The position numbers and the translations under genes were made by a program. The notes under the pieces are model-generated. The model saw nothing but the letters and a program-made list of their open reading frames with translations. It was not told where the DNA came from and made no database searches. Below, piece after piece: positions 13,114 through 57,111 of a stretch of DNA of 64,000 nucleotides (its first letter is position 1; each line of letters begins with the position of its first letter). Source of the DNA: Acidimicrobiia bacterium (GTDB lineage Bacteria; Actinomycetota; Acidimicrobiia; Spongiisociales; Spongiisociaceae); assembly GCA_022827785.1 (NCBI GenBank), contig JAJEIM010000042.1:2924-66923 (forward strand). Reading direction: 5' to 3'.

Positions 13114-13556
13114 TGAGCGCCGTACCGGAACGGGCCAGCCGCATCATGGGCATCGACTACGGAAGCCGGCGAGTGGGTGTGGCTCTCTCCGACCGGCTCG
13201 GAATCGCCGCCCATCCCTTCGACGTGTTCGAGGCGGGTCCCGGCCTCCACCGCCGGCTGGCCGACCTGGTCGGTTCCGAGGATGTGACCGAGGTGGTGGT
13301 CGGGTTGCCGGTCTCGCTCGATGGCACCGAACAGGCTGCCGCCCGCAGGACCCGCCGCTTTGCCGATCGGCTCCGTCCCCTCGTCGGGGTGGAGGTGGTC
13401 CTCTACGACGAGCGCCTGACCACCCGGATCGCGGAAGGCGTCCTGGTGGCGGCCGGAACATCCCGGGCAAAGCGACGCCGGCGGGTCGACAAGGTAGCGG
13501 CCGCGGTGATGCTCCAGGGCTATCTGGACAATCGAGCTCGGGCGAGGGTGGAATGA
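13113..13556 (+). CDS. ruvX: Putative pre-16S rRNA nuclease / Holliday-junction resolvase YqgF (RuvX)
   Basis: GIDYGSRRVGVALSD N-terminal motif, 147 aa. Start overlaps the alaS stop. Confidence 0.88.
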   Translation: MSAVPERASRIMGIDYGSRRVGVALSDRLGIAAHPFDVFEAGPGLHRRLADLVGSEDVTEVVVGLPVSLDGTEQAAARRTRRFADRLRPLVGVEVVLYDERLTTRIAEGVLVAAGTSRAKRRRRVDKVAAAVMLQGYLDNRARARVE

Positions 13557-14680
13557 GCGCCTACCGGCGTCCGGATCGCCCGCCGGAGCGTCATACCGAC
13601 GGCGATGATCGGTGGCTGATCCGCGCCCGGGGCGGCATCACCGGCCTTCTGGTGGCGGCTGTCGTCACGTACGCCCTGGTGGTGGGGGGCGCCGGCCTGG
13701 GCAACTGGGTCAACAGGCTGGGCGGGCTCGGCGGAGGAGATGAGACCGTCGAGGTCGAGCCGGGTCGCACCGTGGTGGTGGAGATCCCGTCGGGGTCGAG
13801 TGCCCGCAGCATCGCCGGCATCCTCGTGAGCAACGGTGTGGTGCCCTCCGCCATCGAGTTCGAGTCATTGGTCCGGACCCGAGAGGCGGGCAGCCTCCTC
13901 AAGGCCGGCACCTACGAGTTGGTCACCGGAACCGACCTCGACGAGATCGTGGACCTTCTCATCGCGGGGCCGTCCCTCGATGTGTTCCGGGTGACGGTGG
14001 TCGAAGGACTCCGTCTCGGCGAGGTCCTGGAGGTGTTGGCCCTAGCCACCGGCGACTACACGGACGAGGACTTCACGGCTGCGCTCGCGAGCGGTGACGT
14101 CACCTCCTCCTACGTGCCCCAGGGTCTCGAGACAGGGGTATGGGAGGGGCTCTTCTTCCCGGCCACCTACGAGTTCTTCGGTGATGCAACCCCGTCCGAG
14201 ATGCTGCAACGGCTGGCGACCGAGATGGAGCGGCGCCTGGAGGGGTACGACTGGTCCACGGTCACCGCACGGGGCTTCTCGGTGTACGAAGGGCTGGTCA
14301 TGGCCTCGCTGGTGGAGGCCGAGGCCGGAACCGATGAGGACCGGCCCCTGATCGCCAGCGTTATCAACAACCGGCTGGAGCGGGGCATGCCGCTCCAGAT
14401 CGACGCCACGGTCCTCTACGCCCTGGGGGACCGGGGCCGGTCGCCCACGCTCGATGACCTCGAGTTCGAGTCTCCCTACAACACCTACCGGATCTCCGGG
14501 CTCCCGCCGACGCCGATCGGCGCGTCGGGCGCCAAGTCCATCGAAGCGGTCATCGAGCCGGCAGAGACCGACTACCTCTATTACGTTCTCACGTCGGAGG
14601 ACGGATCCCACTCCTTCTTCGTTGAATACGACGACTTCCTGGTGGCCAAGCAGCAGGCGGACGCTCTGGGGATCGGTTGA
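13553..14680 (+). CDS. mltG: Endolytic murein transglycosylase MltG (YceG family)
   Basis: N-terminal TM segment then a YceG-like domain (...LQIDATVLYALG...YNTYRISGLPPTPI). Start chosen at the ATG overlapping the ruvX stop, not the long upstream ORF extension from 13106. Confidence 0.85.
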   Translation: MSAYRRPDRPPERHTDGDDRWLIRARGGITGLLVAAVVTYALVVGGAGLGNWVNRLGGLGGGDETVEVEPGRTVVVEIPSGSSARSIAGILVSNGVVPSAIEFESLVRTREAGSLLKAGTYELVTGTDLDEIVDLLIAGPSLDVFRVTVVEGLRLGEVLEVLALATGDYTDEDFTAALASGDVTSSYVPQGLETGVWEGLFFPATYEFFGDATPSEMLQRLATEMERRLEGYDWSTVTARGFSVYEGLVMASLVEAEAGTDEDRPLIASVINNRLERGMPLQIDATVLYALGDRGRSPTLDDLEFESPYNTYRISGLPPTPIGASGAKSIEAVIEPAETDYLYYVLTSEDGSHSFFVEYDDFLVAKQQADALGIG

Positions 14681-15492
14681 TCCGGATGGCCTTCCTGCAT
14701 CTGGCGGTCCTCGGCGATCCGGTGGCCCATTCGCTCTCGCCGGTCATCCACGCGGCCGCCCTGGAGTTCGCGGGACTCGAGGGCGAGTACACCCGGCGCA
14801 GGGTTGATGGACAGGGCATGGGGCGGGCTGCCGCCGATCTGCGGTCCGGACGCCTGACCGGCGCCAACGTGACCATGCCCCACAAGGCGCTGGCCGCAGA
14901 GTTGGCCGACCGGCGCTCGGAAGCGGTGGTCCGGTCCGGCGGCGCCAACACCCTGTGGATGGAGGAGGGCCGGCTACACGCCGACTCGACCGATCCTGAC
15001 GGAGTGCGGTTCGCCTGGCAGCACGCCCGGCTCCCCGACGAAGCTCCGGTGCTGCTGCTGGGTGCGGGCGCGGCCGCCGCCGCGGCCCTCCTGGCACTGA
15101 GCGATCGTGACGTCCGGGTGGCGGCGCGGCGGCCGGAAGCAGCCCACGACCTGGTAGCCCGCGTCGGCGCCAGGGCGGCGGTCGCGCCGTGGGGGCGGCC
15201 GGTGGCGGGGGCGGTGCTGGTCAATGCCACCCCGCTGGGCATGGGTGGTGAAGACCTCCCGGCCGCCGTGCTGGAGCAGGCGGGGGGTTTGCTGGAACTG
15301 GCCTACGGCCACGGGCAGACCCCGGCAGAGATGGCGCTGCGGGCTCGGAACCTGCCAGTGGCCTCCGGGGAGCTGATGCTGGTAGGCCAGGGAGCGGCCT
15401 CCTTCGCCATCTGGACCGGCGTGGAGGTACCTCCGACCGTCATGCTGGAGGCGCTCGCCGGACACCGGGATCAACCCACAGCTCGCCCCTAG
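14677..15492 (+). CDS. aroE: Shikimate dehydrogenase
   Basis: LAVLGDPVAHSLSPVIHAAALEFAGL N-terminus typical of AroE. Overlaps the mltG stop. Confidence 0.85.
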   Translation: MIRMAFLHLAVLGDPVAHSLSPVIHAAALEFAGLEGEYTRRRVDGQGMGRAAADLRSGRLTGANVTMPHKALAAELADRRSEAVVRSGGANTLWMEEGRLHADSTDPDGVRFAWQHARLPDEAPVLLLGAGAAAAAALLALSDRDVRVAARRPEAAHDLVARVGARAAVAPWGRPVAGAVLVNATPLGMGGEDLPAAVLEQAGGLLELAYGHGQTPAEMALRARNLPVASGELMLVGQGAASFAIWTGVEVPPTVMLEALAGHRDQPTARP

Positions 15493-15602
15493 TGTCCCGG
15501 ATCGTTGGTTCGTCGGGTTCCAAGGCTTCCTGAACGAGGCACTTGACCGATCCGGATCGATCTTGATTCTCAGGCCTGTGACGTTGTCCGGCGACAAGGG
15601 GG

Positions 15603-15624
15603 TTGAATGTGTCACATCCGCGTT
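15603..15624 (+). promoter_or_regulatory. Candidate sigma-70-like promoter (TTGAAT -35, TATAGG -10-like) in a lower-GC intergenic patch
   Basis: TTGAAT-(15 nt)-TATAGG, read directly. Flanked by the inverted hexamers TGTGAC/GTCACA. Confidence 0.3.
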
Positions 15625-15837
15625 ATAGGTTGTTGGATTACCGCAATTGCCAAGCGGTTCGGCACCGACGTCGACCGGACCTCCGGAGGGATCAAATCGT
15701 TCGAGGTGGCCCCGTGGAGGGCATAGCGGACCGCGTCTCGAACCCAGGTGGTGGCGGTGGAGGAGGGCCCGCCGGGTCGGGTTTGGCGTGGCGATTTTCG
15801 CGTCATCTTTCCGATGCAGGACACAAGGAGCATGCTG

Positions 15838-15939
15838 ATGAAGACGGGGATGGGTTGGACCGCGATGTCTCTACCAGGGCTTTCATTGCCGAACTATCAG
15901 GCCACCCGGCCACTCTTCAGCACCCTCCTGGTGGACTAG
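15838..15939 (+). CDS. Candidate small protein (33 aa) with a strong SD, immediately upstream of the prepilin peptidase
   Basis: AAGGAG at 15825-15830, 7 nt before an ATG. ORF MKTGMGWTAMSLPGLSLPNYQATRPLFSTLLVD. No recognisable homology. Confidence 0.25.
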   Translation: MKTGMGWTAMSLPGLSLPNYQATRPLFSTLLVD

Positions 15940-15942
15940 GCG

Positions 15943-16719
15943 GTGCCGCTCCACCTTCTCATGGGAGTGGCGGGCCTCTTCGCGGGCCGATTCCTGGTGA
16001 CCCTGATCCGGGCCGACCTGGAGCGGGCGCCGATCAGGTCGGTCATAACCTGCCGCCCGGCCTGCGCTTGTCCTGCCAGGCCGGCGGACTACATGCCGAT
16101 GTTGTGGTGGGCGGTAAGCGGGGATCCCTGTTCCGGGTGCCACCGGCCTACCGGCGCACTTCACCGGCTGGTGGAGCCGGTGACCGCGGCCGCCTGGGCC
16201 GGTACGGCGTGGTTGGTCGGCGCGCAGTGGACGCTGGCGGCCCATCTGTGGATGGTGGCGGTGACGGTGGCGCTGGGCTTCGTAGACCTGCGGAGCTACC
16301 GCCTCCCCAACCGGGTGCTCGTACCCGGGACGGTGACGGGCCTTCTCCTGCTCGCCGGCGGCGCTCTTGCGGACGGTCGGATCGGCGACATGCCGGCGGC
16401 CCTGGCGGCCGGCCTCGGCTACTTCTGCGCGCTGCTGATCCCGGCCCTGCTGACCCGAGGCGCCATCGGGATGGGCGATGTCAAGCTGGCGTTCCTGCTG
16501 GGACTGTTCGCCGGTTACCACGGGTGGGAAACCGCCTTCTCAGCGCTGGCGGGGGCGTTCCTGGCGGTCGGATCGGCGGCCGCGGTGCTACTGGCACTGC
16601 GTCGTATCACCCGCCACGATTACCTGCCGTTCGGCCCGTTCATGGTCGCCGGGGCCTGGTTCGCGATCGCGCTACGAGTTGCCAACTACCAACTACTGTA
16701 TCCTGCCGGGTTCGTATGA
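15943..16719 (+). CDS. Prepilin (type IV leader) peptidase, A24 family
   Basis: N-terminal Cys cluster (CRPACACP...CSGCH) and the GMGDVKLAFLLGL catalytic-Asp motif. Multi-TM. Stop overlaps the argS ATG. Confidence 0.8.
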   Translation: MPLHLLMGVAGLFAGRFLVTLIRADLERAPIRSVITCRPACACPARPADYMPMLWWAVSGDPCSGCHRPTGALHRLVEPVTAAAWAGTAWLVGAQWTLAAHLWMVAVTVALGFVDLRSYRLPNRVLVPGTVTGLLLLAGGALADGRIGDMPAALAAGLGYFCALLIPALLTRGAIGMGDVKLAFLLGLFAGYHGWETAFSALAGAFLAVGSAAAVLLALRRITRHDYLPFGPFMVAGAWFAIALRVANYQLLYPAGFV

Positions 16720-18479
16720 GCCTTCTCTCGGATCTGACCACGATCGTCGCGGCCGGCTTCGAAGCCGCCGGATTGGACGCCTCGTTCGGCGCCGTCCAGG
16801 TCTCCGATCGTCCCGACCTGGGCCAGTTCCAATGCAACGGCGCGCTGGCCGCTGCTCGGAGCGCCGGCCGTGACCCTCGCTCCATAGCCCGCCAGGTGGC
16901 GGCGCAGATCGAGAGCGACCATAGGCTCGCGTCGGTGTCGATCGCCGGGCCGGGTTTCATCAACCTGACCGTAACCGACCGGACCCTCGCCGGCTGCATG
17001 GACGCCATGGCGGGGGACGAGCGGTTGGGCGTGTCCCCGGTCGAGGAGCCGCTAAATGTGATAGTGGACTATGCGGGGCCGAACGTGGCCAAGGCAATGC
17101 ATGTCGGGCACCTCCGAGCCACGATCATCGGGGACACTCTCAAGCGCCTCTTCCGTTTCGCAGGACACGAGGTGTTGGGAGACGTCCACTTCGGTGACTG
17201 GGGCCTTCAGATGGGCATGCTCATCGTGGCCACCCGCCGGCGCCGTCCGGACCTGGCGCACTTCGACAGATCCTACGGGGGTCCCTACGAGGAACCCCTC
17301 GACGTGACTCTGGCCGATCTCCAGGCGTGGTATCCGGAGATGGCTCGCGAGGTGGCGCGTGACGAGGACGTTGCCGCCGAAGCTCGCCGGGCGACCACCG
17401 ATCTCCAGTCGGGCCGGCCCGGATACGTGGCGCTCTGGGAACACTTCGTCCGGGTGTCCCGTGCCTCCCAGGAGCGGGACTTCTCCGACCTGGGGGTGGA
17501 GTTCGACCTCTGGTACGGGGAGAGCACGGTCCGGGATCTGCTCCGGCCGCTGGTGGATGACGCCCTTGCTCGGGGGGTAGCGGTGCGGTCGGACGGAGCC
17601 GTGGTGATCGAAGTGAGCCGGCCCGGCGACAAGGCCGAGATCACGCCCCTCGTGCTCGAGACCTCCCACGGGGCCTTCCTCTACGGCACCACCGACGTGG
17701 CCACCATCCAGATGCGGGTCGCGGACTTGAGGGCGGACCTGATCCTCTACGTAGTCGACTCTCGCCAGTCCTACCACCTCGAGCAGGTATTCCGGGCCGC
17801 CTGCCGGGCCGGCCTGTCCGGCCGGACAGTCATGGAACACATCGGCTTCGGAACCATGAACGCGCGGGACGGAACCCCCTTCAAGACGCGGGAGGGCGGT
17901 GTGCTCAGGTTGGGAGATCTGATCGAGATGGTCACTGACGCCGCGGCGACCCGTCTCGAGGAGTCGGACCTGGCAGCCGGATATTCGCGGGCGGAACGGG
18001 CCGTGATCGCTCGCCAGGTCGGGATCGCCGCTCTCAAGTTCGGCGACCTGGTCAACAACCGTACCTCCAACTACGTCTTCGACCTGCGCCGATTCACCGC
18101 GCTGGAAGGCAAGACCGGGCCCTACTTGCAGATGGCGGCAGTGCGAATGGATTCGATCCTCACCCGGGCCTCACGCCGGGGATTGGCGCCTGGCGCCGTC
18201 CTGCCGCCCCACCACGAGACGGACACCGGGCTCGTGCTACGCCTTCTCCAACTCCCGGAGGTGATCGACCGCGCCATGGAGTTGCGCGCCCCCAACCATC
18301 TGGCCGAATTCGCCTACGAGGTGGCTGCCGATTTCAGCCGTTTCTACGAGGCATGCCACATCCTGACCGAGCCTGATCCCGGGCAGCAGGCCTCGTGGCT
18401 GGAAATGGTCCGGACGGCCCGCCGGACGCTGGAGCTCCTGCTCGACCTGCTGGGAATCGAGGTTCCTGCCCGCATGTAG
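16716..18479 (+). CDS. argS: Arginine--tRNA ligase
   Basis: HVGH(LR) class-I motif (AKAMHVGHLRATIIGD) and the C-terminal DALR anticodon-binding region. Start at the ATG overlapping the pilD-like stop. The upstream part of ORF 15603..18479 is out-of-frame overlap with pilD. Confidence 0.9.
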   Translation: MSLLSDLTTIVAAGFEAAGLDASFGAVQVSDRPDLGQFQCNGALAAARSAGRDPRSIARQVAAQIESDHRLASVSIAGPGFINLTVTDRTLAGCMDAMAGDERLGVSPVEEPLNVIVDYAGPNVAKAMHVGHLRATIIGDTLKRLFRFAGHEVLGDVHFGDWGLQMGMLIVATRRRRPDLAHFDRSYGGPYEEPLDVTLADLQAWYPEMAREVARDEDVAAEARRATTDLQSGRPGYVALWEHFVRVSRASQERDFSDLGVEFDLWYGESTVRDLLRPLVDDALARGVAVRSDGAVVIEVSRPGDKAEITPLVLETSHGAFLYGTTDVATIQMRVADLRADLILYVVDSRQSYHLEQVFRAACRAGLSGRTVMEHIGFGTMNARDGTPFKTREGGVLRLGDLIEMVTDAAATRLEESDLAAGYSRAERAVIARQVGIAALKFGDLVNNRTSNYVFDLRRFTALEGKTGPYLQMAAVRMDSILTRASRRGLAPGAVLPPHHETDTGLVLRLLQLPEVIDRAMELRAPNHLAEFAYEVAADFSRFYEACHILTEPDPGQQASWLEMVRTARRTLELLLDLLGIEVPARM

Positions 18480-28564: not shown

Positions 28565-28659
28565 GCCTCCGTAACCTGGGGGACTAGAGGCTACCGCGCG
28601 GTTTGGTGATCTCGGGCGCTTGAGTGGGACGACCGGCGATGACGAGAGAGCAAACGGCC

Positions 28660-29022
28660 CTAGCTGAAGCTGTTGCCGCAACCGCACGACCGGGTTACGT
28701 TCGGGTTGTTGATGGCGAAACCCGCACCCATGAGGCCGTCCTGGTAGTCCAGGGTCGAACCGCGCAGCAGGTCCACGCTCTGGCGGTCAACCACCACGTT
28801 GAGACCGTCGAACTCCTCGATGACGTCGGCGTCGGACCTGTCGGAGTCGAAGAACATCTCGTACGAGAATCCGGAACACCCTCCGGGGCGGACGGCCATA
28901 CGCAGGGCCAGGGCAGGGTCGCCCTCGGAAACCAGCAACTCGCGTACCTTGGCGACCGCTCCATCGGTCAGCGTGACCGCCCGCATCGGTCGGCGCGAGG
29001 TGATGTTGACAAGCTGTTCCAT
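28660..29022 (-). CDS. HesB/IscA-family iron-sulfur cluster insertion protein (ErpA/SufA-like)
   Basis: C-terminal CGCGNSFS and internal GCSGFSY cysteine motifs. 120 aa from the internal ATG. Confidence 0.8.
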   Translation of the reverse strand: MEQLVNITSRRPMRAVTLTDGAVAKVRELLVSEGDPALALRMAVRPGGCSGFSYEMFFDSDRSDADVIEEFDGLNVVVDRQSVDLLRGSTLDYQDGLMGAGFAINNPNVTRSCGCGNSFS

Positions 29023-29256
29023 CCGGGCACTCCCCGATCGACCGTCCGGGCCATCCCGAGGAATTGGCCCGACGCGGGCATTATACAAGCGGTCGACAGC
29101 CAACCGCGGGCGAGGCGGCGCTGGCGGTCGAACCCGTGCGGCACATTTGCTGCTTCCGTGGTCCGGCCTGCCGAAGGCCGTGCGCAGCATGGCGTGTCGA
29201 GAACGACGTCATTGGCGATAAGGTGGGTCGATCCGACGGATGGCGCGGAGACGACC

Positions 29257-30396
29257 ATGCCACAAACCCTCACCGAAGACCGGATCATGGAGGCCCTACG
29301 AGGGGTGATGGACCCTGAACTCGGTTCGGATGTGGTCGATCTGGGGATGGTGCGCGAAGTGGTACTCGATGAGGGTGTCGTGACCATCGGACTGGCCCTG
29401 ACCATCGCCGAGTGTCCCATGCGGAGCCAGATCGAGAACGACACCGTCCGCAGGATCGAGGCGATCCCCGGGGTGCAGAGGGTGGAGGTCAAGACCCGGG
29501 CCATGACGAGGAAACAGCGCTCGGAGCTGATGGAAGTGGCCCGCCGCCGCGCCCGGGAGAACGCCGCACCCACCCGCGTTCCGCCCACCACCAGGACGAT
29601 CGCGGTCGGGAGCGGCAAGGGCGGCGTCGGCAAGAGCTCGGTCTCCGTCAACCTGGCCCTGGCGCTCGGCCGGATGGGATACCGGGTCGGGTTGCTCGAT
29701 GCCGACATCTGGGGATTCTCGATCCCCAGGATGGTGGGGACGGACGCCCGGATCGGAGCTGACCCGGACACCAAGCTCATGCAACCGGTCGAGGCCTACG
29801 GCATCAAGGTGGTGTCCACGGGCCTGATCATCGAATCTGAGGAGACTGCGCTCATGTGGCGGGGCTTGATGCTATCCAAAGCGCTGGAGCAGTTCCTGCA
29901 GCAGGTCGCCTGGGGGAAGCTCGACTACCTGGTCATCGATCTGCCTCCCGGCACGGGCGATGTCCAGATGGCCCTGTCCCGCCTGCTTCCCCAGTCGGAG
30001 ATGATCGTGGTGACCACCCCTTCCCTGACCGCTCAGAAGGTGGCGATCAGGGTGGCCGACATGGCGCGTCGCTCCGCGATGCCGGTGGTCGCGGTGATCG
30101 AGAACATGTCCTACTTCGAGACTCCGGACGGGCAGCGGTTCGAGCTGTTCGGTCGCGGAGGGGGTGAGGCGCTGGCTGACTCGCTCAACATCCCGCTCAT
30201 AGGAGAGATCCCCCTGGATCCGGCCCTGGGCGCCGGCGCCGACCGGGGCGAGCCGGTGGTGGTCGTCCGACCCGATGGTCCCGCGGCCCGGGTCTTCATG
30301 GAAGTGGCCGGAAGGCTGGTCGTCCTGGTCCCCCCGGCCGAAGCCGAGACCTGCACGGGCCGGATCGCCAAGCTGATGGCGGCGCTCACCTCGTAG
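29257..30396 (+). CDS. apbC: Iron-sulfur cluster carrier protein ApbC/Mrp (NBP35 family ATPase) with N-terminal DUF59/MIP18 domain
   Basis: Deviant Walker A GSGKGGVGKSSVSVNLA, and DADIWGFSIPRM. N-terminal domain (MEALRGVMDPELGSDVVDLGMV) typical of Mrp. Start at the ATG 29257 inside the long ORF 28624..30396. Confidence 0.88.
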   Translation: MPQTLTEDRIMEALRGVMDPELGSDVVDLGMVREVVLDEGVVTIGLALTIAECPMRSQIENDTVRRIEAIPGVQRVEVKTRAMTRKQRSELMEVARRRARENAAPTRVPPTTRTIAVGSGKGGVGKSSVSVNLALALGRMGYRVGLLDADIWGFSIPRMVGTDARIGADPDTKLMQPVEAYGIKVVSTGLIIESEETALMWRGLMLSKALEQFLQQVAWGKLDYLVIDLPPGTGDVQMALSRLLPQSEMIVVTTPSLTAQKVAIRVADMARRSAMPVVAVIENMSYFETPDGQRFELFGRGGGEALADSLNIPLIGEIPLDPALGAGADRGEPVVVVRPDGPAARVFMEVAGRLVVLVPPAEAETCTGRIAKLMAALTS

Positions 30397-46924: not shown

Positions 46925-47572
46925 GTGTCTTACAATCGCAGCTTCATGGCGACGATTGTCTATATCGACGGGCTCAACTTTTACTACGGTGCTGTAAGGG
47001 GGACTGCCTACAAGTGGCTTGACTACCAGGCGCTTTGCGCACGGCTGCTTCCGCGCGACCAAATCACCAAGATACGCTACTTCACGGCGCGAGTCACCGG
47101 ACTCCCCCATGATGCGAGCGCGGCGACTCGGCAGGACACCTACCTACGCGCCCTCGAAACCCTCGCGCTCGTCGAGATTCACTACGGCCAAATTGTCACC
47201 AGGACCCGGAGGTTGCCGCTGGCCAATCCGACCCCAGGCAGCCCACGAACGGTGGAGGTTCTGGTGACCGAGGAGAAGCGGACCGATGTAAACCTCGCTA
47301 GCTACCTCCTACTCGATGCCTTCACCGGTGCATGCGACACGGCGGTCGTTGTCTCGAATGATTCGGACCTTGCCGAGGCCATCGACATCGCCACGAATGT
47401 CGCCGGAATCAAAGTGGGGGTGGTGAATCCCCACCCTGCCCGATACCGCTCACGACATATGTCGGGAACGTTCTTCAAGCAGTTGCGCTGCGGGATTCTT
47501 CGCCATTGCCAGCTCCCTTCGGAGCTCCACGACGATGCGGGAAGAGCCATCCGGAAACCAACTACCTGGTAG
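46925..47572 (+). CDS. NYN-domain (PIN-like) ribonuclease family protein
   Basis: IVYIDGLNFYYG ... AVVVSNDSDLAEAI matches the NYN/LabA-like fold. Locally lower GC. Alternative ATG start at 46946. Confidence 0.7.
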   Translation: MSYNRSFMATIVYIDGLNFYYGAVRGTAYKWLDYQALCARLLPRDQITKIRYFTARVTGLPHDASAATRQDTYLRALETLALVEIHYGQIVTRTRRLPLANPTPGSPRTVEVLVTEEKRTDVNLASYLLLDAFTGACDTAVVVSNDSDLAEAIDIATNVAGIKVGVVNPHPARYRSRHMSGTFFKQLRCGILRHCQLPSELHDDAGRAIRKPTTW

Positions 47573-49371: not shown

Positions 49372-49563
49372 CCTGCGCTCCGATCCGTGTCCTTGCTCAA
49401 GGGACTGTCGAAGCCCGCGCCGATGATGCCATGGTCCTGTCACAACCGTAAGGCTGATCCGTCGATCCTTCCTGGCGCCATGGCGGATCGGCTGGTAAAA
49501 GTCCCCACCGTGCGGGAGAAAAGTCTGTTTTCCACATGCAAGGGCCAAAGCAAATCATAAGTT

Positions 49564-50742
49564 ATGATGGCTAATCGGAACACGACGTGCTTCAGAGACG
49601 AGAGTAATGGGGATGGGTCGAGAAAGGCAGCCTTCGACTCCGCGCCGGCGGCTGGGATGATGGCGAGTCGAGGATCCGGGGGAGCGGTGTCAGCTATGCC
49701 AACCCGGCGTAGTGTGGTACTTGAGAACGTCCCGCTGGCCTCGCCGTTTCCTGAGGGTTGGTACTTCGTCACGAGCCGTAAGGCGCTCGAAGCCGGGATG
49801 ATCGAAAAGACCTGGATGGGGGAGAAGATCGTCGCCTGGAGCGACGAGAACGGGAACGTGTGCGTCGCCGGCGCCTTTTGCCCGCACCTTGGCGCCGATC
49901 TGGGACCGACCGCGGGAGGGCGCATCTGCGATGGGAGGCTGGTCTGCCCGTTCCATGGCTACGAGTTCGACGCGACCGGCCAGTGCGTGGCCACCCCCTA
50001 TTCACCCCCGCCTACCAAGGCGAAGTTGCGCGTCTTCGAGACCCGGGAAATCGCCGGCATGATCTTCGCCTGGTGGGGGATCGGGGGGCGGGCACCGCAA
50101 TGGAGCCTGGCTGACGACGATCTGGACCAGGACGGATGGACCGGTCTCAAGATCAGGACCGTCCGCTTTCCCGGCCATCCCCAGGAGACCACGGAGAACT
50201 CGGTGGACGTGGGCCACCTGCGCTACGTCCATGGCTATGACAGCGTGAGTCGTGTCGGGCGGGTCTCGGTGGACGGGGCGCGTCTTGAGAGCGACTTCGA
50301 CTTCATGCGCACCCGGACCATCGGCAAGGTGTTGAACCTCACCTTCGACGTGGCGGCGCGTACCCGTATCTTCGGGTTGGGCTATTCGTTCGTGCAGATC
50401 CGCGAGCGCTCGATCGGAATGGACATGCGCCTGTGGGTGCTGGCCACGCCGGTCGACGGTTTGCTCATCGACCTGTCACTGGTTTCGCAGGTGCGGGAGA
50501 TACGCAAGCCGCGGCGGTGGATAGCGGGCCTGGGGTTTCTGCCGGTGAAGTTACGCGCCCCCATCATGAACCGGTTCATTTCCGCTCAGCAATACGGGGA
50601 CGTCCAGCAGGACGTGATCATCTGGAGCCGCAAACAGTACCGATCCCGCCCGCTTCTCTGCCGTTCCGACGGCGAGATCATGCCGTTCCGGCGCTACTGC
50701 GCCCAGTTCTACCCCGACCGGGGCGACCCGGAGAACCGCTAG
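49564..50742 (+). CDS. Rieske [2Fe-2S] non-heme-iron oxygenase, KshA/Neverland-like
   Basis: Rieske motif CPHLGADLG-x17-CPFHGYEF. Mononuclear-iron motif E-x3-D-x2-H-x4-H (ENSVDVGHLRYVH). About 390 aa like KshA. True start may be a later M. Confidence 0.75.
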   Translation: MMANRNTTCFRDESNGDGSRKAAFDSAPAAGMMASRGSGGAVSAMPTRRSVVLENVPLASPFPEGWYFVTSRKALEAGMIEKTWMGEKIVAWSDENGNVCVAGAFCPHLGADLGPTAGGRICDGRLVCPFHGYEFDATGQCVATPYSPPPTKAKLRVFETREIAGMIFAWWGIGGRAPQWSLADDDLDQDGWTGLKIRTVRFPGHPQETTENSVDVGHLRYVHGYDSVSRVGRVSVDGARLESDFDFMRTRTIGKVLNLTFDVAARTRIFGLGYSFVQIRERSIGMDMRLWVLATPVDGLLIDLSLVSQVREIRKPRRWIAGLGFLPVKLRAPIMNRFISAQQYGDVQQDVIIWSRKQYRSRPLLCRSDGEIMPFRRYCAQFYPDRGDPENR

Positions 50743-50860
50743 CGCGCGAGCTGACCGGATCGGGGGTATGCAGATGGCCCGCTGGGGAGGGACGTGTTCT
50801 CTCGGTTTTCGCGTTCTTGATGCCCGGGTATGGGCGACGAACTGCTGAATCAGCGCCCTC

Positions 50861-51949
50861 TTACAGCGGCTTGCGGGCCAGGAAACAATACAGCGGTGTG
50901 AAGATCCCGGCCCTGCCACCCGCGACATATGCCCTGGCGGTCCGATCCATCAGCCTCACGACGTCCGCGGTGCCTTCCGGAAATATCTTCACCAACTCGG
51001 CCAGCCTGAGTCCCCCGATCATCGCCTTCCGGCCCAATGGGACCCTGTACAGGGTGCCGCCCGGCGTGCCGCGCCGGGTCTCCATGGGCCGATACCAGGG
51101 AACGGGGTGGCTCGGACTGTTCTGCGCTACGGCCCGATCCTTCCCTTCGAGGACCTCGAATCCCGCTTCTTCGAGCGCCCGGTTCACCTCGCCCGTGGTG
51201 GCGATTCCGTCGAGCGCGATGCCGTGCATCAGCTCATGCTCGATGGCTCGGTGCCGGTCGTCGTCGGGATCGAACCTGTCCGTCAAGCACATCTCCTGGC
51301 CCCAGAAGAGAGCTCCGGGCTTGAGAACCCGGTGGATCTCCGCGAACGCGCTCACCTTGTCCGGCGCATGGCACGTCGATTCGATGGCGTAGCCGCGGTC
51401 GAATGTGTCGTCCGCGACGGCGCTCATGTCCATGAAGCTGCAGGCAAGGTAGTCGACCACGTGGTCGAGACCCGCCTCGGCATTCAACGACTTCGCCTTG
51501 TCCAATTGGAGATCGTTGTTGTTGACGCCTACGACCCGGACACCACCCTCCCGAACGACACGGCGCATCGGGCCGCCGATCCCGCAACCGACGTCGATCA
51601 CGGTCATGCCCTCGCGCAATTCCAGCTTGTCGATCATCAGTCGCTGGTGCCTGATCTGCGATTCTTCCAGGCTCTCCTCGGGCGACAGTGGCGCGAAGTG
51701 CAGGGACTCGCTCCAACCGAACACCATGAACTCCCCGCAAAGGTCGTAGTAGTCCCTCACGGTTTTGGCGTGGTCGTAGGCTGTTGCGCCGGTTCCCGTG
51801 CGAATTGCCCGGTCGGTCCATCCGTTGAAGTGGCGCACGCGACCGGCGACGTCCGTCCCACGGTACGTCGCCTTGAGCCCGGTGGCTAGCTCGCGCAGAC
51901 CCATGAACCCTGGGACATCAACAGCGACGGGGTGTCTTCTCGTGTCCAT
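50861..51949 (-). CDS. Sterol 24-C-methyltransferase (ERG6/SMT)-like SAM-dependent methyltransferase
   Basis: SMT region I YYDLCGEFMVFGWSESLHF. SAM motif VIDVGCGIGGPMR. GVNNNDLQLDKAK and YAIESTCHAPD match ERG6-family signatures closely (ERG6: GLNNNDYQI..AK, YAIEATCHAP). Internal ATG start at 51949. Confidence 0.85.
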   Translation of the reverse strand: MDTRRHPVAVDVPGFMGLRELATGLKATYRGTDVAGRVRHFNGWTDRAIRTGTGATAYDHAKTVRDYYDLCGEFMVFGWSESLHFAPLSPEESLEESQIRHQRLMIDKLELREGMTVIDVGCGIGGPMRRVVREGGVRVVGVNNNDLQLDKAKSLNAEAGLDHVVDYLACSFMDMSAVADDTFDRGYAIESTCHAPDKVSAFAEIHRVLKPGALFWGQEMCLTDRFDPDDDRHRAIEHELMHGIALDGIATTGEVNRALEEAGFEVLEGKDRAVAQNSPSHPVPWYRPMETRRGTPGGTLYRVPLGRKAMIGGLRLAELVKIFPEGTADVVRLMDRTARAYVAGGRAGIFTPLYCFLARKPL

Positions 51950-52109
51950 TCTCCGCGCACCAGAAAATACTACAGGGAGAGAGAGGCGATCATGGCTACG
52001 GCGGCAGGATGCATCCGAGAGGGATCCTGCCCACCCGTCGAATCGGTCTAGATCCGTCCGGTTCGGCGCCACGGCCAGTACCGGGCCACACTCTCGAGTG
52101 GATCGCCTC

Positions 52110-54137
52110 CTACACCGGCAGTTCGTGCCGCTGCGCGGCGATGACGAACTTCAGCTTGTTGTTCACCGACGAAGATGGGAACGGGCTGATCTTCAGCTTG
52201 TACCTGGCGGGTGAGATCTCGAGGGTGAAATGGTGTACGAGCATCAGCAAATGGATCGCCATTTGAAGTGACGTCCACCGGGAGCCCAGGCATGTGTGGG
52301 TACCCAGACCGTACGGCGCAAATGAGGATCCGACGTGTTCCCTGCGCGGCGCTAGATAGCGACCGATATCAAACGAGAAGGGATCGGGGAAGACTTCCTC
52401 CATGTAGTGTGTGGCCGTTTGGGCAATCACGACCCGGGACCCCTGCGGGAGTTCGTATCCGTCAACTGTGCACGTGTTCATCACGTTTCGATAGGATGCC
52501 GGCACGATCGGATAGACACGCATGCACTCCATGATGAACCGGCGTGTGACGTCTATCCCAGGTCCGGTGATCTCATCACGATCGGGATCCCCGTTGGCGA
52601 ACAAGGCATCGGCCTCGCCCTGGATCTTCTCGTAGAACTCGGGCTGTGACACCATCGCGTAGGTGATCAAGCCAAGCTGGTCACCCACATACATGCTTGC
52701 GATCAACGGCGCCGAGAGCACGAACGGCAGATTCGACTCCGGGAGGAACTGCCGGTCGCTCGTATGCATGCTCAGAAGGTCATCGGCAAGATCGCGAGGG
52801 CACCCTGCCCGCTGGGCGGGCGTGTGGACGCTCTGGACTCGTTCCACAACCTCTCCGACCAGCTTCGCCCGGCGCTTCATGGCAGGAGTACGCAGCATGA
52901 ACTTGGGCATGTTCCTGACGACATGGGTCTGAAGGGCTCGTTCCTTGAACTTGTGCAGGTCATCGACGAGATCCTGGGAATCGATACTGACGGTGAGCGG
53001 CGACATTGTTGCGTTGACCAGGCGCCTGCACATCGCCTTCGCGGGAAGCACATCTCCGACAGACCAGGCTGCCATGTGGTTCCGGGCATTGGAGTAGACC
53101 TCATCCAGCTGAGCTTCCAGCCTCGCGCGTGAATAGGCCGGCTGCATGGACTTGCGATACCGGAAATGATCACCACCGTCGAGGGTAGGCAATAACCCCG
53201 ATCCTCCGTATACCTTCTCGAAGTCCTCCAGATAATCCTTGGCCCTCAGATACATGCGCCCGTGCCGATGCACCCAGTGGTTCATTTCTGGTCCGGCGAG
53301 AAAGATCATCGGGTTGGCGAAGGGTGGACGAACCTGGAACACGGGACCATATTCTTGCGCGAGCTCTGCAAATAGTGCAGGAATATTACCTTGACGAAGG
53401 TGTCGACTGCCCAGCAGATGGCGAAGCGGCGCAACCGGAATCGGCTTAGCGAAAGCGGAGGGTCTGAACAAGGACCCAGCCAGGTTGTCGCTAACTGCTG
53501 CGGCGATGGACCTGCCGATCAGGTCCATCTTGCCGATGAATTCAACACGCCTTTCCGACTCTTCATCAAGGTCAAATATGAAGCGCAAGACATCACATGT
53601 ATTGATGAGACAGATGATAATGATATCTCTAGGGTCCGGAATCTCGTTGGCGAAGATCGCTCGACCGAGGCGCGTCTTGACGAAGTCTACAGCAGTACCT
53701 TCCCCAGATCTGGCATACGTGTCCTTCTGACATCCGCCCCGGGCCAACGACCAGAAGTCACCGTCGTGGTGCTGCAAGATCTTCAGGTCGACCAATCGAT
53801 CAAGGGTTAAGTCGATAATCGATTCTGCACGGGGAGCGAGCCGTTCGATCCAGTACTGGGCGTTCCGCTGAACCGGCTCTGCGGCGATCTTCTCGAGAAT
53901 AGGATCCAGGGCAGGATCGCCTGTTTCTGTTCGATCCAGAAGGATCAAGGAATCCATATCCGTGTCGATACGAGATAGCAGCGACAGCTCTCCCAACACG
54001 GCGCCGATAACGGCACAGTTCAGATCCCACCCGGGAACCTGCCGGAAGTAGCCACTCTCCTCGTTGAGGAGCGTGAGGACGAACTCGTCGAGCAAACTGA
54101 GCGTCTGACTGGTCGCACTGCTTGCGGTAAGAGTCAT
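52110..54137 (-). CDS. Cytochrome P450 with N-terminal GPP34/GOLPH3-like domain (fusion, 675 aa)
   Basis: C-terminal P450 has EXXR (ECMRVYP) and heme-thiolate loop FAPYGLGTHTCLGSRW. N-terminal about 200 aa match the GPP34 family (LLDEFVLTLLNEESGYF..VPGWDLNCAVIGAVLGELSLLSRI ... DPRDIIIICLINTCDVLRFIF). Lower GC than the flanks. Confidence 0.85.
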   Translation of the reverse strand: MTLTASSATSQTLSLLDEFVLTLLNEESGYFRQVPGWDLNCAVIGAVLGELSLLSRIDTDMDSLILLDRTETGDPALDPILEKIAAEPVQRNAQYWIERLAPRAESIIDLTLDRLVDLKILQHHDGDFWSLARGGCQKDTYARSGEGTAVDFVKTRLGRAIFANEIPDPRDIIIICLINTCDVLRFIFDLDEESERRVEFIGKMDLIGRSIAAAVSDNLAGSLFRPSAFAKPIPVAPLRHLLGSRHLRQGNIPALFAELAQEYGPVFQVRPPFANPMIFLAGPEMNHWVHRHGRMYLRAKDYLEDFEKVYGGSGLLPTLDGGDHFRYRKSMQPAYSRARLEAQLDEVYSNARNHMAAWSVGDVLPAKAMCRRLVNATMSPLTVSIDSQDLVDDLHKFKERALQTHVVRNMPKFMLRTPAMKRRAKLVGEVVERVQSVHTPAQRAGCPRDLADDLLSMHTSDRQFLPESNLPFVLSAPLIASMYVGDQLGLITYAMVSQPEFYEKIQGEADALFANGDPDRDEITGPGIDVTRRFIMECMRVYPIVPASYRNVMNTCTVDGYELPQGSRVVIAQTATHYMEEVFPDPFSFDIGRYLAPRREHVGSSFAPYGLGTHTCLGSRWTSLQMAIHLLMLVHHFTLEISPARYKLKISPFPSSSVNNKLKFVIAAQRHELPV

Positions 54138-55161: not shown

Positions 55162-55238
55162 GGCCCCGTCGTCCAGCCGGCCTAGGACGCTGGCCTTTCA
55201 AGCCAGAAACGCGGGTTCGAATCCCGTCGGGGCCACCA
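55162..55238 (+). tRNA. tRNA-Glu (anticodon TTC), CCA encoded
   Basis: Manual fold. Acceptor GGCCCCG/CGGGGCC, D-stem GTCC/GGAC, anticodon stem CTGGC/GCCAG, loop CTTTCAA, T-loop TTCGAAT. Confidence 0.85.
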
Positions 55239-55276
55239 TTAAGAATCTCACCGCCCCCGCCTTTCGTGAGGTGTAG

Positions 55277-56476
55277 ATGACCGGGGACAGACACTTCTAC
55301 GTAGACTCGTTCGATACGGTCCGGCTGAGTTCGTATCGGCTCGGTCGGTCGCCCTTTGCCGGCCGATACGTGACGGACCAGACGATCTTCGGCCTGTACT
55401 GCGGTCGCTTGTATCCCCTCAAGACCACCCCCGACGAGGACCCAGTTCCCCGGTACTGGAAGCTGCGTCGCGGGGTGCTGCTCTACGACGTTCCGGAGAA
55501 GCCCCTCGAGATCAGCGGACCGGACGCCGCCCGAGTGCTCGAGAGGGTTCTCATCTGCAGGGTCGCAACGCTCGCAGTGGGTCGGGCTCGCTATGGCATC
55601 GCCTGCAAAGAGGACGGCACCGTTCTGATGGACGGTGTGCTCATGCGCCTTGCGCAGGATCGCTTCTGGTACGTGAAGGCGAACGGGGAGTTCACGAGCT
55701 GGCTCGAGGCGCACGCCGTCGGGCTTGACGCAGAAGTCTCCGATCCGGATTCGAGAGTGCTGCAGATCCAAGGGCCGAAGTCGCTCGATGTTCTGGACGC
55801 GGCCATCGGTGGTGGGCTATCGACCGACTTCAGATATTTCCACGCCGGATTCTTCGACATCGGAGGCCAGACATTGTGGGTCTCCCGGACCGGGTGGACG
55901 GGGGAGATGGGCATCGAGATCTACTGCAACAGCGGTCCGGAGCCCACGGATCATGACGCCCTCTGGGATCATCTGTTCGCCAGCGGTGGACCCTTCGGAC
56001 TCGAGTTCAGCTCGGGGTCGTCGATGGGAATACGGCGCATCGAAGCCGGCATCCTGGACAATGGCACCGATATCGAAGCGGACCTGACGCCGTTCGGCGC
56101 CGGCCTCGGGAACTTTGTCGCCCTCGACAAGGGGGACTTCATCGGCCGCTCCGCGTTGGTGAAGGCCGATCGCAGCCAGCTCCTGTTCGGCCTGGTATGT
56201 GCCACCGCCGCTCCGGACGCCGGGCTGCAGGTCCACTTCGAGAACCGCCCGGTCGGGCACATCACGATAGGCACCTGGTCGCCCACGCTGGACAGAGGAG
56301 TCGGCTACGTGCGCTTCGATCGACCGCTGCCGGGTGGTGACTGGCTCGGCAAGACGGTCATGTTGCTCGACCATCGGGGAGGCCTCCACCCGGCGACTGT
56401 CGACACCCTGCCGTTCGTGGACAAGGAGAAGCGGTTACCGCGCGCCGAGTGGCGTGGCGGAGGGTCCGGGACATAG
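55277..56476 (+). CDS. Aminomethyltransferase (GcvT) family folate-binding protein
   Basis: GcvT-like N- and C-terminal barrel domains (YDVPEKPLEISGPDA..., GTDIEADLTPFGAGL). 399 aa. Confidence 0.75.
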   Translation: MTGDRHFYVDSFDTVRLSSYRLGRSPFAGRYVTDQTIFGLYCGRLYPLKTTPDEDPVPRYWKLRRGVLLYDVPEKPLEISGPDAARVLERVLICRVATLAVGRARYGIACKEDGTVLMDGVLMRLAQDRFWYVKANGEFTSWLEAHAVGLDAEVSDPDSRVLQIQGPKSLDVLDAAIGGGLSTDFRYFHAGFFDIGGQTLWVSRTGWTGEMGIEIYCNSGPEPTDHDALWDHLFASGGPFGLEFSSGSSMGIRRIEAGILDNGTDIEADLTPFGAGLGNFVALDKGDFIGRSALVKADRSQLLFGLVCATAAPDAGLQVHFENRPVGHITIGTWSPTLDRGVGYVRFDRPLPGGDWLGKTVMLLDHRGGLHPATVDTLPFVDKEKRLPRAEWRGGGSGT

Positions 56477-56545
56477 GGCGTCGCCGGTCCGGCGCGCGGT
56501 CCGGTTGACGCGAGCGCCACCATACCTGGTAACTTGGCGGCCTGA

Positions 56546-56617
56546 TCGGGAGTGGTGTAATCGGCAGCACGACAGGTTCTGGCCCTGTTAGTAGGGGTTC
56601 GAGTCCTCTCTCCCGAG
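56546..56617 (+). tRNA. tRNA-Gln (anticodon CTG)
   Basis: Manual fold. U1-A72 acceptor TCGGGAG/CTCCCGA, D-stem GTGT/GCAC, anticodon stem ACAGG/CCTGT, loop TTCTGGC, T-arm AGGGG-TTCGAGT-CCTCT, discriminator G. Confidence 0.8.
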
Positions 56618-56644
56618 CGGTTGGTATCATTCGCCACACGCAGT

Positions 56645-56717
56645 GGCCCCGTCGTCTAGGGGCCTAGGACACCGCCCTCTCAAGGCGGAGACGCCAGTTC
56701 AAATCTGGTCGGGGCTG
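56645..56717 (+). tRNA. tRNA-Glu (anticodon CTC)
   Basis: Manual fold. Acceptor GGCCCCG/CGGGGCT (G1-U72), anticodon stem CCGCC/GGCGG, loop CTCTCAA, T-loop TTCAAAT. 27 nt after tRNA-Gln. Confidence 0.8.
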
Positions 56718-57111
56718 CGATAGAACGACCCGGTCGGACCCATCACCGTGTGAAGGGTTCCGGTCGGGTCATTCCTTTCGCTGTCTCGGACGGCTCTTCG
56801 CAAACGAGCGGGTCGATATGTGTCCGACCGAGAGCCTCGCTCCCGAAAATCCGGTGCTTCGCATCGGGCCCCGCCCCCACCACCACCCATCCTGTTGGAG
56901 CGTGGTCGGCCATGCCCGGCTGGATGCCGGGGATCGGCTGTCGCTCCATGAAGCCTTCCATGTTCCCTCGGTCCGGCCGGTCCGATCGTCATCGGCCGGT
57001 TAGGTGCTTGGCGATGGGCACCTTATAGCGGGGGTGTGACGATTCCGGCCACGATCTGCGAGAACGCGAAAGAACGGTAAGGAAGCGCCTCCGCGATCGG
57101 TGAGGGTCGTG

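Follow-up and report, generated by a model that had tools for sequence, protein, structure and literature searches.

Several gene families of sponge symbionts have been linked to sterol chemistry or to contact with the host. Sterol methyltransferase genes (SMT/ERG6) are enriched in the symbionts of Ircinia sponges, where they sometimes flank ERG24-CYP51-LSS steroid clusters (Kelly et al., 2022; PMC9531527), and functional bacterial SMTs of sponge symbionts have been reported (Brown et al., 2023; PMC10070321). GPP34_L, in which an N-terminal GPP34 domain is joined to a C-terminal cytochrome P450, was described in 2025 as exclusive to sponge symbionts and was proposed to be a secreted effector that binds phosphatidylinositol 4-phosphate (PI4P) and blocks phagosome maturation (PMC11706023). 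A KshA cluster exclusive to metagenome-assembled genomes (MAGs) of sponges has also been reported, together with an enrichment of steroid-degradation genes in sponges (Holert et al.; PMC5790920). Members of all three families stand side by side in the stretch of DNA considered here, 64,000 nucleotides of contig JAJEIM010000042.1 (assembly GCA_022827785.1, positions 2,924 to 66,923) of an Acidimicrobiia bacterium, hereafter the window. Its three adjacent genes encode a KshA-like Rieske non-haem-iron oxygenase, an ERG6-family SMT paralogue, and a GPP34-P450 fusion, and this trio is more likely than not a reduced form of a sponge-symbiont module for the modification of sterols, or of closely similar polycyclic triterpenoids, at the cytoplasmic membrane of the symbiont.

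A literature search found no paper that joins GPP34, sponge-symbiont SMTs, and Rieske genes, many subscription papers being outside its reach. The three-gene linkage, a separate SMT clade, and the insertion history of the locus are apparently new. A sequence-only reading of the window had proposed a candidate sterol- or steroid-tailoring module that either has the rest of its pathway elsewhere or acts on exogenous sterols or another triterpenoid. This core claim is supported and survives the tests named for its refutation, which were a methyltransferase of the cyclopropane-fatty-acid or mycolate group, a Rieske protein clustering with aromatic dioxygenases, and a lack of sterol genes.

Recurrence of the module and its sterol-gene neighbourhoods

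The methyltransferase clade was followed through 81 loci of species-representative genomes, each taken with 10 kb on either side, by clustering of their open reading frames (ORFs) and then by tblastn. Within 10 kb of the methyltransferase, the GPP34-P450 fusion gene is found in 58 of the 81 loci and the KshA-like Rieske gene in 57; a resistance-nodulation-division (RND) transporter of ~825 amino acids (MMPL, 4e-46; sterol-sensing domain (SSD), 4e-13; HAE3/HpnN/BstA class) is found in 56, an FAD amine-oxidase-like oxidoreductase in 42, an LppX/LprG-like lipoprotein with a DHA2 pump of the major facilitator superfamily (MFS) in 19, and an ERG4/ERG24 reductase in seven. The loci come from Chloroflexota, Acidimicrobiia, Alphaproteobacteria, Binatia, Dadabacteria, and Thermodesulfobacteriota, and the trio as such recurs in no fewer than seven lineages of bacterial sponge symbionts. 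At least four distinct gene orders occur among the loci, with order and orientation varying by lineage. For instance, most Chloroflexota have the transporter and methyltransferase genes head to tail with the fusion gene convergent on them; Dadabacteria and Thermodesulfobacteriota have the transporter gene, a reversed Rieske gene, and the methyltransferase gene; the order in the window is different again. The association also holds in an independent sample of sponge metagenomes: of 30 contigs that are 12 kb or longer, 17-20 carry the fusion and 13 the Rieske gene. The description of this gene set as rare and unexpected was thus overstated, since the genes are common in sponge symbionts and SMT enrichment in the same Ircinia MAGs had already been published (PMC9531527).

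That three unrelated, horizontally acquired genes came to lie together by chance is extremely improbable. The housekeeping flanks of the trio, the differing GC of its genes, and the apparently separate arrival of the methyltransferase speak for chance adjacency, which is nevertheless contradicted by the co-occurrence of the families in about 70% of the 81 loci and in the independent metagenome set, in several orders and across phyla.

The contexts of three loci give the strongest grounds for a sterol-chemistry reading of the module. In a Binatia locus (L076), the Rieske gene, two fusion genes, an FAD oxidoreductase gene, and two SMT genes adjoin genes of sterol synthesis, namely a 3-beta-hydroxysteroid dehydrogenase/epimerase (SdmB-like), a Rieske protein with VanA_C (SdmA-like by domain content), ERG4/24, and a 1269-aa squalene-epoxidase/oxidosqualene-cyclase (SMO-OSC) fusion, the oxidosqualene cyclase being found in the Binatia locus only. 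ERG4/ERG24, which adjoins the module in the seven loci, stands in L086 directly upstream of the fusion gene alone, and L089 has the genes for the methyltransferase, the fusion, the SSD-RND transporter, and the Rieske protein packed into no more than 9 kb. The gene set of the window therefore does recur beside sterol genes in other genomes. The Binatia cluster as such (L076:1932-20938; MAG OZ242288.1) is a full sterol cluster of ~19 kb with tandem SMTs, one per clade, and offers a good template for pathway reconstitution. It also holds two ORFs without a Pfam match (275 and 387 aa) and a 489-aa ORF at the CYP51 position of the published ERG24-CYP51-LSS clusters, placed there by position only.

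The Ircinia steroid clusters (PMC9531527) and the SdmA/SdmB clusters are related to the window through the same metagenome set, and the Binatia module adjoins a cluster of this kind. The differences run in both directions. Oxidosqualene cyclase, CYP51, ERG24, and SdmA/B were not found in the annotated parts of the 64-kb window (about 33-41 kb lies outside the Pfam scan, here and below), which for the cyclase agrees with the sequence-only reading, whereas the Rieske, GPP34-P450, FAD oxidoreductase, and SSD-RND genes are not in the described clusters.

The transporters resemble other known systems. HpnN and BstA, together with the mycobacterial LprG-Rv1410 (P55) system, carry hopanoids, sterols, or glycolipids to the envelope, and related loci of the module likewise encode an SSD-containing HAE3-class RND transporter and an LppX/LprG-like lipoprotein beside a DHA2 MFS pump. 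However, the RND proteins score far below the equivalog cut-offs (HpnN, 75-107 bits vs 752-1100; BstA, 24 vs 1400), and the window, when searched for homologues of the RND transporter, the FAD oxidoreductase, the LprG-like lipoprotein, the MFS pump, and ERG4/24, contained none. Export of the product is suggested because the SSD-RND transporter and the lipoprotein/MFS pair accompany the module in other genomes.

The three proteins and their closest relatives

The three ORFs and the domains that the sequence-only reading had assigned to them are borne out by Pfam, and the motifs it had quoted are present (CPHLG...CPFHG, ENSVDVGHLRYVH, YYDLCGEFMVFGWSESLHF, IDVGCGIGGP, NNNDLQLDKAK, and YAIESTCHAP). 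The ORFs are real, but two of the starts had been placed too far out, that of the Rieske gene at 49564 instead of 49696 and that of the methyltransferase gene at 51949 instead of 51901. Purifying selection acts on each of the three genes, whose dN/dS against the nearest relatives is 0.12-0.28.

The Rieske gene (49696-50742, plus strand) encodes 348 aa; its ORF is open from 49564, and homologues and public annotation set the start at M45. The product matches the Pfam domains Rieske (1.9e-16) and KshA_C (8e-22), the latter over the whole domain. When aligned to KshA, it has intact CxH/CxxH cluster ligands and an iron site composed of E-x3-D-x2-H-x4-H and a C-terminal Asp, so that the Rieske cluster, the 2-His-1-carboxylate iron site, and the KshA_C domain of that family are all present. 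The closest solved structures, by sequence and by fold, are the KshA steroid hydroxylases and not aromatic dioxygenases. Identity to KshA is only about 18-30%. Of the KshA/Neverland/SdmA size class named in the sequence-only reading, the KshA-like type stands, but SdmA was rejected at 28.2 bits against a cut-off of 600 for NF052579, with a match to the Rieske domain only. Instead of a hydroxylation, the enzyme might just as well catalyse a desaturation of the kind known from the Neverland/DAF-36 cholesterol 7-desaturases.

KshA is known to work with KshB in a 9,10-seco degradation set that includes KstD and HsaA-D, and the kinship raises the possibility of a catabolic or detoxifying locus in which the Rieske oxygenase and P450 would act on sterols of the host in the manner of KshA and Cyp125 in actinobacterial cholesterol degradation, with the methyltransferase as an unrelated passenger. 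Such a role is unlikely, even though KshA is the closest characterised relative of the Rieske protein, the fusion and Rieske genes stand as a pair in three sister genomes that have no methyltransferase between them, and both the enrichment of steroid-degradation genes in sponges and the sponge-MAG-only KshA cluster (PMC5790920) are in keeping with it. In Ca. Poriferisocius, moreover, the fusion, Rieske, and FAD-oxidoreductase genes lie in catabolic-looking surroundings with no SMT nearby. This locus (L085:4102-21832, on a 4.06-Mb contig) has a tandem pair of GPP34-P450 fusion genes together with those of the Rieske protein and the FAD oxidoreductase, and around them lie genes for four short-chain dehydrogenases/reductases, another P450, an FMO-like monooxygenase, a family-III CoA-transferase, and an acyl-CoA dehydrogenase. 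Against catabolism stands the absence of KshB, KstD, and HsaA-D from the Pfam-annotated genes of the window, from the gene families recurring across the 81 loci, and from the checked neighbours in L076 and L045. The partners that recur are instead biosynthetic or export-type (SMT, ERG4/24, SSD-RND, and the LprG-like lipoprotein with its MFS pump), the module lies inside a de novo sterol cluster in Binatia, and the identity to KshA is low.

The methyltransferase gene (50861-51901, minus strand) encodes 347 aa; its ORF is open to 52072, and the start is M57 of this long ORF. The protein matches Sterol_MT_C (PF08498; 4.5e-15, 55.9 bits vs a cut-off of 21.7) at residues 346-402 of the long ORF, as well as CMAS and the class-I methyltransferase domains (Methyltransf_11/25/31), and its SMT-specific C-terminal domain sets it outside the cyclopropane-fatty-acid and mycolate group. 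It is 35% identical to yeast ERG6 over the full length. Residues are numbered after yeast ERG6, in a sequence that agrees with the published numbering at 34 of 36 positions compared, the exceptions being 175 and 243. The SAM site and Region III are intact, Region II (IDVGCGIGGP) has D125, G127, G129, G132, and P133, and G333, G352, F357, and P359 are present in the C-terminal domain.

A set of 25 residues is conserved among all SMTs shown to be functional, with a Region I motif of Y81-E-(Y/F)-GWGxxFHF (Brown and Welander, 2025, preprint). The window enzyme keeps 21 of these 25 and differs by T78G, G86S, F89L, and L341M, its Region I reading F-M-V-F-GWSESLHF, that is, M81, S86, and L89. The consensus of its clade is M81, F83, L89, and I249. 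Position 81 and Region I are reported to govern successive methylation, and Gly249 is required for propylation, that is, it was found necessary for 24-isopropyl formation (SMT papers of Brown and colleagues). The clade is therefore predicted to behave unlike the assayed enzymes, and the changes in Region I and at residue 249 suggest that it differs from canonical C-24 SMTs in its substrate or its product. The ERG6-type assignment holds as far as the Sterol_MT_C domain and the identity to ERG6 go, but judged by these residues, the enzyme belongs to a divergent paralogue clade and is not a canonical SMT.

This clade is large and apparently confined in its habitat. Relatives of the methyltransferase number more than 1,600 in the protein collection, are 71-84% identical among the matches listed, and occur in Dehalococcoidia/SAR202, Acidimicrobiia, Dadabacteria, Alphaproteobacteria, Binatia, and Thermodesulfobacteriota, the named genomes being sponge-symbiont MAGs. 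The dN/dS of the methyltransferase is 0.28. Six peptide patterns, which may miss members of the clade in other habitats, were run against 241 million metagenome records and picked up 65 loci; every one of them came from a sponge metagenome (Aplysina, Petrosia, or Sarcotragus). The SMTs assayed in 2023 and 2025 lie on contigs other than these 65, and the clade is apparently unassayed. The sponge-symbiont C-24 SMTs (Brown et al., 2023, PMC10070321; Brown and Welander, 2025) share with it the family, the habitat, ~40% identity, the SAM site, and Region III. In contrast, the window-type enzymes form a clade of their own, with more than 70% internal identity and with M81, F83, L89, I249, and a replaced T78, and therefore have neither the GWGxxFHF motif nor Gly249. 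Canonical SMTs (T78, Y81, G86, F89, and G249), which share only ~40% identity with the window clade, are encoded by genes of their own in Binatia and in four of the Chloroflexota neighbourhoods that hold a window-type SMT. The canonical-type, Gly249-bearing genes of the Chloroflexota symbionts (L017:14417-15433, L022:17217-18245, L059:14432-15505, and L067:18074-19171) stand a few kb from the window-type SMT.

The SMT family also includes squalene and botryococcene methyltransferases, and the substrate might accordingly be a lipid other than a sterol, such as a hopanoid, another cyclic or acyclic triterpenoid, a carotenoid, or a polyprenol. The altered Region I, the lack of a cyclase in the annotated parts of the window, and the higher scores of the RND transporter against the HpnN (hopanoid) than the BstA (sterol) models can be counted in favour of such a lipid. 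It is nonetheless a rather improbable substrate in view of the association with oxidosqualene cyclase, SdmA/B-like genes, and ERG4/24 and of the KshA_C, Sterol_MT_C, and sterol-sensing-domain matches.

The fusion gene lies on the minus strand, with the P450 domain at 52110-53447 (residues about 231-675) and the N-terminal GPP34 (GOLPH3/Vps74-like) domain at 53448-54137. Its product is a single protein of 675 aa, with Pfam matches to GPP34 (6.7e-26, residues 15-215) and p450 (8.2e-35, residues 245-661). The haem-binding Cys motif YGLGTHTCLG and the ExxR motif of the P450 are invariant across 50 homologues. By sequence, the nearest solved P450s are CYP725A4 and CYP120, only about 20% identical. 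In a Foldseek search with a model of pLDDT 70, CYP51 of M. capsulatus came marginally first at ~20% identity, with BM3, CYP184, and CYP90B1 close behind. With so low an identity and so slight a lead, the protein cannot be called a CYP51, and neither sequence nor fold led to assignment to any other known CYP family. In the predicted I-helix (window 52650-52700, fusion residues about 480-488), an invariant Y-x-G-D is followed by Q or A, and threonine is not conserved; the fusion family as a whole lacks the acid-alcohol pair that P450s usually employ in oxygen activation.

As for GPP34, a single-sequence search of the domain against the PDB returned nothing relevant, and a profile of 27 homologues matched GOLPH3 (3kn1) weakly, at an E of 2e-4. 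In this weak alignment, W81 of GOLPH3 pairs with the invariant W37 of the domain, and R90, R171, and R174 pair with I44 (I/V), E105, and I108, with a 10-residue gap near R171/R174 and with R99 and R103 nearby. From the GOLPH3 literature, we take W81, R90, R171, and R174 (human numbering) to be residues of the PI4P pocket, roles reportedly worked out by Wood et al. and by Dippold et al., both in 2009.

The fusion also satisfies the definition of GPP34_L, being an N-terminal PF05719 and C-terminal PF00067 protein in one ~675-aa polypeptide from an Ircinia sponge metagenome scaffold. It has the same architecture and length, comes from an Acidimicrobiia sponge symbiont, is 70-86% identical to many members, and is itself a member; where it differs is in the consistent linkage to sterol-type genes seen here, as against the published effector reading. 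The main text of that study makes no mention of sterols, lipids, methyltransferases, or signal peptides, analyses flanks for the short form only, and reports rare fusions of GPP34 to a Rieske domain or an ABC ATPase, which are cytoplasmic partners (PMC11706023).

If the published effector reading applied here, the fusion would be secreted, bind PI4P on the sponge phagosome, and block its maturation, and the neighbouring sterol-type genes would be irrelevant. This is very unlikely. The restriction of GPP34_L reports to sponge symbionts and the PI4P binding of eukaryotic GPP34 (PMC11706023) fit a host-directed effector, as does the invariant Trp that matches W81. Yet nothing in the N-terminus, where the GPP34 match begins at residue 15, resembles a signal peptide, the haem enzyme to which the domain is joined depends on redox partners of the cytoplasm, and the linkage to SMT, Rieske, SSD-RND, and FAD-oxidoreductase genes persists through rearrangement across phyla. 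The I/V, E, and I at the positions of the three arginines also run counter to it, within the limits of the weak alignment. The gene linkage, the N-terminus, the redox partners, and the published GPP34-Rieske and GPP34-ABC-ATPase fusions argue for a cytoplasmic membrane-docking role of GPP34 instead of a secreted effector, the GOLPH3 residues being suggestive only.

Origin and surroundings of the locus

The window shares 99.8% identity with contig JAJEEB010000002.1 of MAG GCA_022821195.1 and 99.65% with scaffold KELL22-1_SAMN22237343_METAG-scaffold_30, and its nearest relatives are annotated as Acidimicrobiia. Sample name and accession numbering agree with an origin in the set of tropical Ircinia sponge metagenomes (Kelly et al., 2022; PMC9531527). 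The trio is surrounded, in the annotated parts, by housekeeping genes such as SecDF, RelA/SpoT, and the His-, Asp-, Ala-, Arg-, and Glu-tRNA synthetases; further genes of the window are glycolate-oxidase-like, glutamine synthetase, Mrp, IscS-like, MnmA, GatB, and GcvT-like genes and three tRNAs. The locally lower GC noted in the sequence-only reading is real, but it belongs mainly to the fusion gene (GC 0.55-0.58, GC3 0.66-0.71, vs a backbone of 0.67 and a GC3 of 0.82-0.88), whose GPP34 part is the lowest of the region (GC 0.55, GC3 0.66), while the Rieske and methyltransferase genes have 0.64-0.65.

Three sister Acidimicrobiia loci (L084, L087, and L088) have fusion proteins 85-86% identical to that of the window and share its flanking genes, DUF7847 at one end and F420H2 reductase, aminotransferase, and gltX at the opposite end. 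Their fusion and Rieske genes are convergent and only 23-299 bp apart, and neither the methyltransferase nor a remnant of it lies between them in any of the three. As these loci share the pair and the flanks without the methyltransferase, the fusion-Rieske pair is ancestral at the site, and the ~1.37-kb segment 50743-52109 that carries the methyltransferase is probably an insertion in the lineage of the window. One edge of this segment is the 118-bp spacer between the convergent Rieske and methyltransferase genes (50743-50860), and the other is the 208-bp spacer (51902-52109) that separates the fusion stop codon from the methyltransferase start on the same strand. The latter has no similarity to the spacer of L084, and a promoter and terminator scan found no signal above chance in it. 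The nearest relatives of the methyltransferase (82-84%) are located elsewhere, one alone in another Acidimicrobiia chromosome and one in the looser cluster of L089. Its dS is 0.35-0.36 against the non-syntenic relatives L003 and L090, compared with 0.58-0.69 for the fusion against its syntenic sisters (crude NG86 estimates under strong GC3 bias), and the lower value fits a more recent transfer of the methyltransferase.

Beside the module, the near-identical scaffold L083 has an extra 1.08 kb (14606-15681) relative to window positions about 49436-49534, between the Rieske and F420H2-dependent reductase genes; it encodes a 283-aa ORF without a Pfam match and represents a strain-level insertion or deletion. 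On the other side, about 1 kb from the fusion gene, the tRNA genes Glu-TTC, Gln-CTG, and Glu-CTC lie around the GcvT-like gene (55162-56718). An NYN-domain gene (46925-47572) has a GC of 0.60 and a GC3 of 0.72, clearly below its neighbours, and may be acquired or decaying; in the twin MAG, a related gene is annotated in truncated form, with 102 aa. Farther away, the ORFs of arginyl-tRNA synthetase (15603-18479), Mrp/ApbC (28624-30396), and YceG (13106-14680) have about 220-385 N-terminal residues without a Pfam match, which are either over-extended ORFs or real extensions.

A putative membrane-bound sterol-modifying pathway

In the favoured reading of the trio as a sterol-modifying module, the substrate would be a sterol with a side-chain double bond, either made elsewhere in the genome or derived from the host. 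The SMT paralogue would move a methyl group from SAM to the sterol side chain, and the P450 and the KshA-like Rieske oxygenase would each carry out one O2-dependent hydroxylation or desaturation of the sterol, with a regiochemistry that we infer only in this outline. The GPP34 domain may serve as a substitute for a membrane anchor, docking the soluble P450 where its lipid substrate sits. In most other genomes, the HpnN/BstA-class SSD-RND transporter, the FAD oxidoreductase, and the LprG-like lipoprotein/MFS pair would complete the set.

Several points weigh against this pathway. The annotated parts of the window contain no cyclase, no CYP51, ERG24, or SdmAB, no transporter, and no redox partner, and the Ca. 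Poriferisocius genes keep company of a catabolic look. The methyltransferase departs at four of 25 positions from residues that are invariant in the SMTs methylating desmosterol or 24-methylenecholesterol, and assayed SMTs with such departures are often inactive on these two substrates (Brown and Welander, 2025, preprint). The P450 falls into none of the known families of sterol P450s, the model of the fusion is of moderate confidence (pLDDT 70) with an unreadable domain arrangement, and the GOLPH3 alignment is weak and gapped near R171/R174.

The locus ties the SMT enrichment, the GPP34-P450 fusion, and the sponge-only KshA homologues into one testable pathway. It singles out a large, strongly conserved SMT clade whose sterol-binding region is unlike that of every SMT shown to be active, and it provides a concrete alternative to the phagocytosis-evasion model of GPP34. 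Side-chain-alkylated steranes such as 24-isopropylcholestane and 26-methylstigmastane serve as the oldest chemical evidence for animals, and the capacity of sponge symbionts to make the parent sterols of those steranes is disputed. In a bolder and unlikely form of the proposal, the fusion would be a membrane-docked sterol oxygenase that joins with the SMT clade, the KshA-like oxygenase, and an RND exporter of the sterol-sensing kind in the production and export of an unusual sterol. If that were true, the exported sterol might carry a non-canonical side-chain alkylation as in sponge biomarkers, for example, the 26-methyl sterols, and bacteria would become candidate sources of sterols that are now treated as animal-specific molecular fossils.

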